A stretch of 64,000 nt of DNA from Escherichia coli (lineage in GTDB: Bacteria > Pseudomonadota > Gammaproteobacteria > Enterobacterales > Enterobacteriaceae), in NCBI RefSeq assembly GCF_002854065.1, contig NZ_CP024147.1. The stretch is one strand, 5' to 3'. Below, piece by piece: positions 58,801 to 61,800 of the stretch. Position numbers: made by a program. The first letter of the stretch is position 1. Each line of letters starts with the position of its first letter.

Positions 58801-61800
58801 CTTTAAGGCGAAACAAATAATTACGCATCAATTTTAATGTCGGTTAGAGGGAAACTTATGAAGCACTCTGTTTCAGTCACGTGTTGTGCGCTGTTGGTCA
58901 GCAGCATTTCTCTTTCGTATGCTGCAGAAGTTCCGAGCGGCACAGTACTGGCAGAGAAGCAGGAGCTGGTGCGCCACATTAAAGATGAGCCTGCGTCGCT
59001 GGATCCCGCTAAAGCCGTGGGCCTGCCAGAGATTCAGGTCATTCGCGATCTGTTTGAAGGACTGGTGAATCAGAACGAGAAAGGGGAGATTGTCCCCGGC
59101 GTTGCGACTCAGTGGAAAAGTAATGACAACCGTATCTGGACTTTTACCCTGCGCGATAACGCAAAATGGGCGGATGGCACACCGGTAACGGCGCAAGATT
59201 TTGTCTACAGCTGGCAGCGTCTGGTGGACCCGAAAACGCTATCGCCATTTGCATGGTTTGCCGCGCTGGCGGGAATCAACAACGCACAGGCGATTATTGA
59301 TGGTAAAGCTACGCCTGACCAGCTTGGCGTCACCGCAGTTGATGCCCATACTTTGAAAATTCAGCTTGATAAACCGTTGCCGTGGTTTGTGAATTTAACC
59401 GCTAACTTTGCCTTCTTCCCGGTGCAAAAAGCCAACGTAGAAAGCAGTAAAGAGTGGACGAAACCCGGAAATCTGATCGGCAATGGCGCTTATGTTCTTA
59501 AAGAGCGCGTAGTCAATGAAAAACTGGTCGTGGTACCGAATACCCATTATTGGGATAACGCCAAAACGGTACTGCAAAAAGTGACCTTCCTGCCAATTAA
59601 TCAGGAATCCGCAGCCACTAAGCGTTACCTCGCGGGGGATATTGATATCACCGAATCCTTCCCGAAAAATATGTATCAGAAGCTGTTGAAGGATATTCCG
59701 GGGCAGGTTTATACGCCGCCGCAGCTCGGGACCTATTATTATGCGTTTAACACGCAAAAAGGGCCGACGGCAGATCAGCGCGTTCGTCTGGCATTAAGTA
59801 TGACGATAGATCGCCGCCTGATGACCGAAAAAGTATTAGGGACGGGCGAAAAGCCAGCGTGGCATTTTACACCAGATGTTACCGCCGGATTTACGCCGGA
59901 ACCTTCGCCGTTTGAACAAATGAGTCAGGAAGAACTGAATGCGCAGGCAAAAACTTTGTTGAGCGCAGCTGGTTATGGTCCGCAAAAACCGCTGAAGCTG
60001 ACGCTTTTGTATAACACTTCAGAAAACCATCAAAAAATTGCGATTGCTGTAGCATCGATGTGGAAAAAGAACCTTGGCGTAGATGTTAAATTGCAAAATC
60101 AGGAATGGAAAACCTATATCGATAGCCGTAACACCGGCAATTTTGATGTTATCCGCGCCTCATGGGTGGGGGATTATAATGAACCCTCCACTTTCCTGAC
60201 ATTATTAACGTCAACGCATTCAGGAAATATTTCACGCTTTAACAATCCGGCATACGACAAAGTTCTGGCCCAGGCATCGACGGAAAATACCGTTAAAGCG
60301 CGTAATGCCGATTACAACGCGGCAGAAAAAATCCTCATGGAGCAAGCACCGATTGCACCAATTTATCAATATACCAATGGACGATTAATCAAACCGTGGC
60401 TGAAAGGTTATCCCATTAATAACCCTGAAGATGTGGCGTACAGTCGGACTATGTATATTGTGAAGCATTGATGTGATGGGAACTGGCGTTACCCTTGTGG
60501 ATAACGCCAGTGATGTCTGATTTAGCGACCCTGTTCCGGCGGTGTAATGTTATCCATATACAGCGTCTGGCTGGGGAAGGCAAAGTCCGCGCCGTGTGAC
60601 TGTACAATATCGATAATCTTCAAATAAACGTCTTGCTGTGCAGCAAGCCACTCAGCCCATACCGTGGTTTTGGTAAAGCAATAAACCATAATATTCAATG
60701 ACGAGTCAGCAAACTGGTTGAAATAAACCAGTAAGGTTTGTCGCTGGTCGATGGCCGGGTGATTTTTCAGCATCTCACGTACGGCTTCGACGATAACGCC
60801 CACTTTTGCCGCATCCTCATAACGTAAACCAATGGTCGTGGTAATGCGGCGGTTGGTCATTCGTCCTGGGTTTTCTACGCTGATCGACGAAAACAGCGAG
60901 TTCGGTACGTACAATGGACGATTATCAAAGGTCGTAATTTTGGTAATTCGCCAGCCAATTTCCGCTACTGTACCTTCGATATTTCTGTCCGGTGAACGGA
61001 TCCAGTCGCCAATACTGAAAGGACGGTCGAAATAGAGCATGATCCCGGAAAAGAAATTACTCAGAATATCTTTACCGGCCATACCGACAGCCAGACCACC
61101 AATACCACCAAAGGTCAGCAAGCCAGAAAGGCTCATGCCGAAATGTTCGCCATAAAGCAGAACAAGCACCACAATAATGGTGATTTTGATAATGCGCGAC
61201 ATAATCCGCGCACTGGTGATATCGCGACCTTTTTTAATCTGCTGTTTTTCAAACTGATTAATCAGCAAAAATAGCTTAATCGTCAGAATAACCGCAATCA
61301 GGGACGTACAGATAAAATCGATAACGCCTGGGGTGATAAATTTGAGTTTATAGTTTTCTATAACATAATTAATAATGCTACCAACAGCACTGATAATTAT
61401 GGTGTAGATTAAAAATTGCACCGCATGGAATAAAAAGCCTTTTCTTTTACGATTTCCGCGGCGAAACCAAAAGCTCATCAGAATCAATGCTGCGCAGCTA
61501 CCGAAAATAATGACCAGATTAAGCGCATTATTTGTAAACAGTTCAGCGATCATTGTTTTATCAGGCTCCTCCAGATAATTGTCGTCATGCCGGAAACCCC
61601 TGGCGGGGCTATTTTACCGCGACAATTCATTCAGATCATCAATAGTCAGGGAAGGAAGTAGCAACATTAGCTAACTAATCAATGCGTTGATTGTAAATCC
61701 AGCTAAGAGGTGAGGTTTTCAGAGCAGACAACGGTGAAATGTCATGGTATTGTTACGTTTAGGTAACAAGAAATTTGTCTGCACAAGGATTACATCATGA

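Follow-up and report, generated by a model that had tools for sequence, protein, structure and literature searches.

The window analysed in this study is a 64-kb stretch of an Escherichia coli genome (contig NZ_CP024147.1), and the locus of interest is the spacer between the divergent genes ynaI and ynaJ, flanked by an mppA-like gene on one side and by uspE and fnr on the other (Table 1). On the minus strand, the start codon of ynaI was read from position 61553; the ATG of ynaJ was found at 61797, leaving 243 bp between the two genes. A first-pass annotation had placed a gap of this length, free of insertion sequences (IS), at 61554-61796, and ORF prediction and BLAST confirmed the coordinates exactly. 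The G+C content of the spacer is 42%, versus 50.6% for the window as a whole. Scanning of positions 60400-63300 against Rfam (E ≤ 1) detected no RNA family, and the spacer contains no known structured RNA.

YnaI was identical to K-12 b1330 at 343 of 343 residues and contained the first, second and third MscS-channel domains of Pfam (PF21088, PF00924 and PF21082), all above the cut-offs. On these domains and orthology, the product of ynaI in the window is assigned to the MscS-family channels; channel activity has been reported for K-12 YnaI (PMC3508906). YnaJ was 100% identical to K-12 b1332 and matched Pfam DUF2534 with 139.4 bits (cut-off 22.4; E = 4.5e-41), the match covering positions 2-79 of the 80-position profile.

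Table 1. Features of the ynaI-ynaJ locus and other regions of the window that differ from K-12
Feature	Position	Strand	Size	Remarks
IS1 copy 1	3106-3873	+	768 bp	In the cysB-acnA interval; GAATTATT duplicated (8 bp)
Window-specific segment	20015-29233		9.2 kb	Replaces the K-12 ycjD region
IS2	20101-21431	+	1,331 bp	Edge of the 9.2-kb segment; AATAT duplicated (5 bp)
RND membrane-fusion protein	22387-23541			Part of RND efflux set
RND permease	23541-26648		1,035 aa	Part of RND efflux set
RND outer-membrane factor	26652-28025			Part of RND efflux set
IS1 copy 2	38309-39076	-	768 bp	In puuA, close to its 5′ end; CTCTACTTC duplicated (9 bp)
ycjM-ycjW/ompG block absent	48104-48189		86 bp	No K-12 match; in place of 14 kb
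Extra sequence	54815-56506		~1.5 kb	K-12 has only ymjC/ymjD remnants
NAD(P)H-binding protein	54975-55625			ORF in the extra sequence
208-aa protein	55631-56257		208 aa	ORF in the extra sequence
Alpha/beta-hydrolase, partial	56196-56564			ORF in the extra sequence
mppA-like	58837-60471	+	544 aa	ORF list
ynaI	60522-61553	-	343 aa	ORF; low-conductance MscS-family mechanosensitive channel; named ynaI in matching RefSeq genomes
ynaI-ynaJ intergenic spacer	61554-61796		243 bp	Divergent genes; uninterrupted
Candidate ynaI -10 sites	61611-61616 or 61635-61640			Two weak matches, relaxed scan
Unoccupied IS5 target CTAA	61671-61674		4 bp	Single copy; inside TTAG-CTAA-CTAA cluster, 61667-61678
Candidate ynaJ extended -10	61745-61753			TGgTATTGT, with -35 CAGACA; relaxed scan, weak but plausible
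ynaJ	61797-62054	+	85 aa	ORF; DUF2534 small membrane protein
uspE	62104-63054	-	316 aa	ORF; NCBIfam equivalog match
fnr	63206 onward	-		ORF list

The first-pass annotation had also named a copy of IS5 as separating the two genes in K-12. Such an element, IS5F, is annotated in MG1655 (NC_000913.3) at 1396044-1397238; it is 1,195 bp long, carries insH4 (b1331), and separates ynaI (b1330, ending at 1395922) from ynaJ (b1332, starting at 1397365). Towards ynaI, IS5F is flanked by 121 bp of K-12 DNA ending with CTAA, and towards ynaJ by 126 bp beginning with CTAA. The junctions read CTAA followed by GGAAGGTGCGAACAAG and, at the other end, CTTATTCGCACCTTCC followed by CTAA; the IS5 ends form inverted repeats, with insH4 lying inside. 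When IS5F and one CTAA were subtracted from the K-12 spacer, the remainder was identical to the window spacer at 243 of 243 bases. Chance plays no part in such a comparison of presence against absence, which agrees at each base. Alignment of the window with 72.5 kb of K-12 by BLAST gave two segments here that overlapped at exactly 61671-61674, as expected of a clean empty site with one CTAA versus the CTAA-IS5-CTAA of K-12. This tetranucleotide fits the known target sites of IS5, which are CTAA or CTAG (PMC11677980). No residual IS5 sequence or footprint was found in the window spacer, the flanks being collinear with the reconstructed empty site over its whole length. BLAST of the entire window with the K-12 IS5 as query returned nothing beyond chance matches, none of them longer than 33 bases (E ≥ 0.77).

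The frequency of the two alleles was determined in a collection of 5,426 complete RefSeq E. coli genomes. A 1,243-bp query spanning the locus was contiguous in 5,055 of them (approximately 93%), and the exact 48-bp empty site was present in 5,007. The genomes in which the locus was split were mostly K-12 lines, with the break falling exactly at query positions 618-621. The K-12 ynaI-IS5 junction was detected in 355 genomes of the collection with a 200-bp probe and in 359 with a 48-bp probe. Forty-seven full-length, 100% matches, taken at even spacing from the approximately 359 carriers, were checked by name. All were K-12 lines, transconjugants, or laboratory-like strains whose size (4.55-4.75 Mb) resembles that of K-12. 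The K-12 lines included MG1655, W3110, BW25113, BW2952, DH5alpha, NEB10-beta, DH10B-type strains, MC1061, J53, EC600, and WG1, and O16:H48 re-isolates from mouse gut were also present among these carriers. The empty ynaI-ynaJ spacer is therefore the norm of the species, and K-12 is the unusual genome. By parsimony, for E. coli genomes and with 47 of the approximately 359 carriers named, the empty state would be ancestral and the insertion limited to one lineage.

Comparison of the remainder of the window with K-12 by BLAST showed collinear blocks with identities of 97.4-99.6%, except for a single 146-bp match at 95.9%. Two copies of IS1 and one of IS2 were found in the window, at sites that are empty in K-12, and IS5F is the only IS annotated in the homologous K-12 stretch. 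Both IS1 copies matched the NCBIfam transposase model NF033558 with 143.8 bits (cut-off 100) and terminated in GGTGATGCTGCCAACTTACTGAT and GGTAATGACTCCAACTTATTGAT; they are 100% identical to each other, lie 34 kb apart and have opposite orientations. Such an inverted identical pair could support an inversion. The IS2 copy, a member of the IS3 family, has imperfect inverted terminal arms with AATAT on both sides, and its TnpA and TnpB were full length and above the cut-offs (NF006928, 275.8 bits; NF006918, 727.6 bits). The remark of the first-pass annotation that the genome has a different IS complement, "IS1 and IS2 instead", thus holds within the window, with two IS1, one IS2 and no IS5 facing a K-12 stretch that carries only IS5F. 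It fails as a description of replacement, the IS1 and IS2 copies being at other loci, and 64 kb is too little to represent a genome-wide complement.

Several further features were observed around these elements. The second IS1 copy lies within the first ~9 codons of puuA, the glutamate-putrescine ligase gene of the region 36908-39103 on the minus strand, and its duplication CTCTACTTC corresponds to K-12 1360882-1360890; by its position, this insertion has probably inactivated puuA, and with it a gene of putrescine utilisation, in the window genome. The 9.2-kb segment contains, in order, IS2, a TetR-family regulator (21684-22271), the RND efflux set, and an MFS transporter (28034-29197), and is adjoined by sapF; the same segment without IS2 is present in other E. 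coli. The 14-kb ycjM-ycjW/ompG block, which in K-12 comprises sugar-utilisation genes and a porin (1370023-1384103), is represented in the window by the 86 bp between pspE and ycjX. As for the extra 1.5 kb, K-12 appears, on sequence comparison, to have the deleted form of this region; the 208-aa protein encoded there had no Pfam match.

These differences bear on whether the window could come from a K-12 derivative in which IS5 had excised precisely or had been engineered out, as it has in IS-free strains or strains with a single IS5 deletion. The locus itself would suit such an origin, as its spacer matches the reconstructed K-12 empty site at every base and both proteins, YnaI and YnaJ, are identical to those of K-12. 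After a pKD13-type replacement, one would expect a cassette or scar to remain, not a clean single CTAA. Engineered deletions of the ynaI/ynaJ copy do exist, and in the published ones IS5 was replaced by means of the pKD13 kanamycin cassette (PMC11677980). The rest of the window, however, shows no more than 97.4-99.6% identity to K-12; the 14-kb ycjM-ycjW/ompG block is missing from it, and it contains the 9.2-kb non-K-12 segment as well as IS1 and IS2 at sites empty in K-12. Moreover, the IS1-puuA junction and the IS2 junction were each absent from the whole collection of 5,426 complete genomes, which includes hundreds of K-12 lines. An origin from an engineered or excised K-12 is accordingly regarded as extremely improbable and was ruled out by the divergence, the gene content and the unique IS junctions.

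Loss of the element in assembly, by collapse of a repeat copy in a draft, was judged just as improbable. IS elements are a classic cause of assembly gaps, and Logan short-read contigs of related samples do break at the IS2 edge. Collapse would nevertheless give contig breaks rather than a seamless junction with exactly one 4-bp target, and the three other IS copies in the window were assembled with their target duplications intact. Over 5,000 complete genomes, all independent, have the same empty site. This explanation was rejected on the seamless single target, the three intact IS copies and the thousands of matching genomes.

We therefore consider, with a probability of about 0.96, that the window spacer is the ancestral, never-occupied allele, that IS5 entered the K-12 lineage, and that the window genome belongs to a separate lineage. 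In K-12, one IS5 would have transposed into the CTAA equivalent to 61671-61674 and duplicated these 4 bp, so that the 1,195-bp element would have come to lie upstream of both genes, at 121 bp from ynaI and 126 bp from ynaJ. The window lineage would never have received IS5F and would have gained its own IS1 and IS2 copies elsewhere. A never-occupied site and one restored to a single CTAA by precise excision would look alike from sequence alone; parsimony favours a single insertion in K-12 over a loss in the window. Because the collinear blocks diverge by 0.4-2.6% each and several indels are present relative to K-12, the window is placed in a separate lineage, its source being, on this divergence, an E. 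coli-group strain other than K-12. A Shigella-type lineage rich in IS1 would be a purely speculative placement, suggested by the density of IS1 in the window.

Since ynaI and ynaJ diverge from the spacer, both promoters and both 5′ leaders must be located in it. The gene arrangement, together with weak promoter matches, suggests that the spacer serves as the promoter region for both genes. A consensus promoter scan at its threshold detected no sigma-70-like site in the spacer, and a relaxed scan gave only weak matches of 7-8 of 12 positions (Table 1), which serve as leads only. The YnaI papers contain no promoter map for ynaI. All candidate core promoters from the relaxed scan were gene-proximal of the K-12 IS5 insertion point, for both genes. 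From this placement, the K-12 IS5 may leave the core promoters of ynaI and ynaJ intact while shifting away any sequence further upstream.

An inverted repeat and two hairpins were also observed. The repeat, TTGTTAC-N6-GTAACAA, is perfect and occupies 61750-61769, 28-47 bp ahead of the ynaJ ATG and directly after the candidate extended -10 of ynaJ; its sequence and position might suit an operator or a hairpin in the leader, and it is kept in K-12 because the spacer is identical. A G+C-rich hairpin at 61588-61609 (core CCCCTGGCGGGG, 61597-61608), 35-56 bp ahead of the ynaI coding sequence, was flagged on the plus strand in a terminator scan; on the ynaI sense strand it would be part of the ynaI leader if transcription started further upstream. 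The genes ynaJ and uspE converge, with 49 bp between them that contain one hairpin (AGGCCCGAGTTATCGGGCCT, 62064-62083), and the ynaJ-uspE element has been used as a model bidirectional terminator in studies of RNA-polymerase collision (bioRxiv 10.1101/2022.10.23.513370).

A second insertion was found in this spacer in strain NCTC9966, the only partial match among the results listed for the 48-bp empty site. The element is an IS1A (768 bp; 2233-3000 of the extracted locus), and its 9-bp duplication corresponds to window positions 61664-61672, overlapping the IS5 target by 2 bp; NCTC11121 has the same IS1A junction. Two IS families have thus used overlapping targets in separate lineages, IS5 at 61671-61674 in K-12 and IS1 at 61664-61672 in NCTC9966 and NCTC11121, and both targets fall within ~11 bp (ACATTAG-CTAA) that include part of the TTAG-CTAA-CTAA cluster of this 42% G+C spacer. 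IS5 insertions are known to activate genes when they lie upstream of them, as with bglGFB, glpFK and flhDC. It is conceivable from these points that positions 61664-61674 are a preferred IS landing pad whose occupancy alters the expression of ynaI or ynaJ, but we consider this unlikely. Only two independent events were seen among ~5,400 genomes, A+T-rich intergenic DNA gathers tolerated insertions anyway, and the best candidate core promoters, being gene-proximal of the insertion point for both genes, may be unaffected. Two events fit tolerated insertion in an A+T-rich intergenic spot, and a hot spot is not established. The fuller proposal, that the site is a recurrent landing pad and that the IS5 present in every K-12 strain would alter native expression of ynaI, ynaJ or both, is held to be slightly less probable still. 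If it were true, the report of very low native YnaI channel activity in K-12 would not carry over to wild E. coli such as the window genome.

The insertion in K-12 has been documented before. The ynaI/ynaJ copy is IS5 number 4 of 11 in BW25113 (PMC11677980), and the element b1331 has been described as lying to the right of ynaI (PMC2072959). In a W3110 stock, recombination of the b1331 IS5 with a second IS5 by ogt deleted ynaJ-uspE-fnr (PMC2072959). Some K-12 strains have an IS5 upstream of fnr, according to PMC3149613, which cites Sawers 2005 (J Bacteriol 187:2609). In CY34 (NZ_CM181225.1), a K-12-like clinical isolate, the IS5 by ynaI abuts a truncated ttcA (4687-6767 of the extracted locus), and ynaJ, uspE, fnr, ogt and the genes that follow as far as ttcA are missing; judged from this junction, the gap is apparently an IS5-associated deletion that took out fnr. 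With no IS5 at the site, this IS5-mediated route to loss of fnr is absent from the window genome.

IS5F at ynaI/ynaJ is thus a documented K-12 marker, and the finding in the window, while correct, is already known and ordinary; it matters little overall, the window having the normal allele of the species. The presence or absence of IS5F helps in recognising K-12 derivatives and explains the spontaneous ynaJ-uspE-fnr deletions in some K-12 stocks. It should also be kept in mind that regulatory work on ynaI and ynaJ in K-12 has been done with IS5 121-126 bp upstream of both genes, an arrangement which is not that of ~93% of E. coli.

Compared with known loci, the window is most similar to the contiguous type represented by ETEC6335 (NZ_CP122588.1), which is 100% identical over window positions 61054-62296, with the same order of ynaI, ynaJ and uspE; no difference exists at the locus, and the window differs elsewhere, by its own IS1 and IS2 junctions. 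The IS1A locus of NCTC9966 and NCTC11121 involves the same spacer as IS5F of K-12 but a different element, a 9-bp duplication and another lineage, and this insertion is absent from the window. The IS5F locus of MG1655 shares with the window the flanking genes, identical proteins, identical 121- and 126-bp flanks and the same CTAA. It differs in having the 1,195-bp IS5 and a duplicated CTAA, whereas the window has neither and retains a single CTAA.
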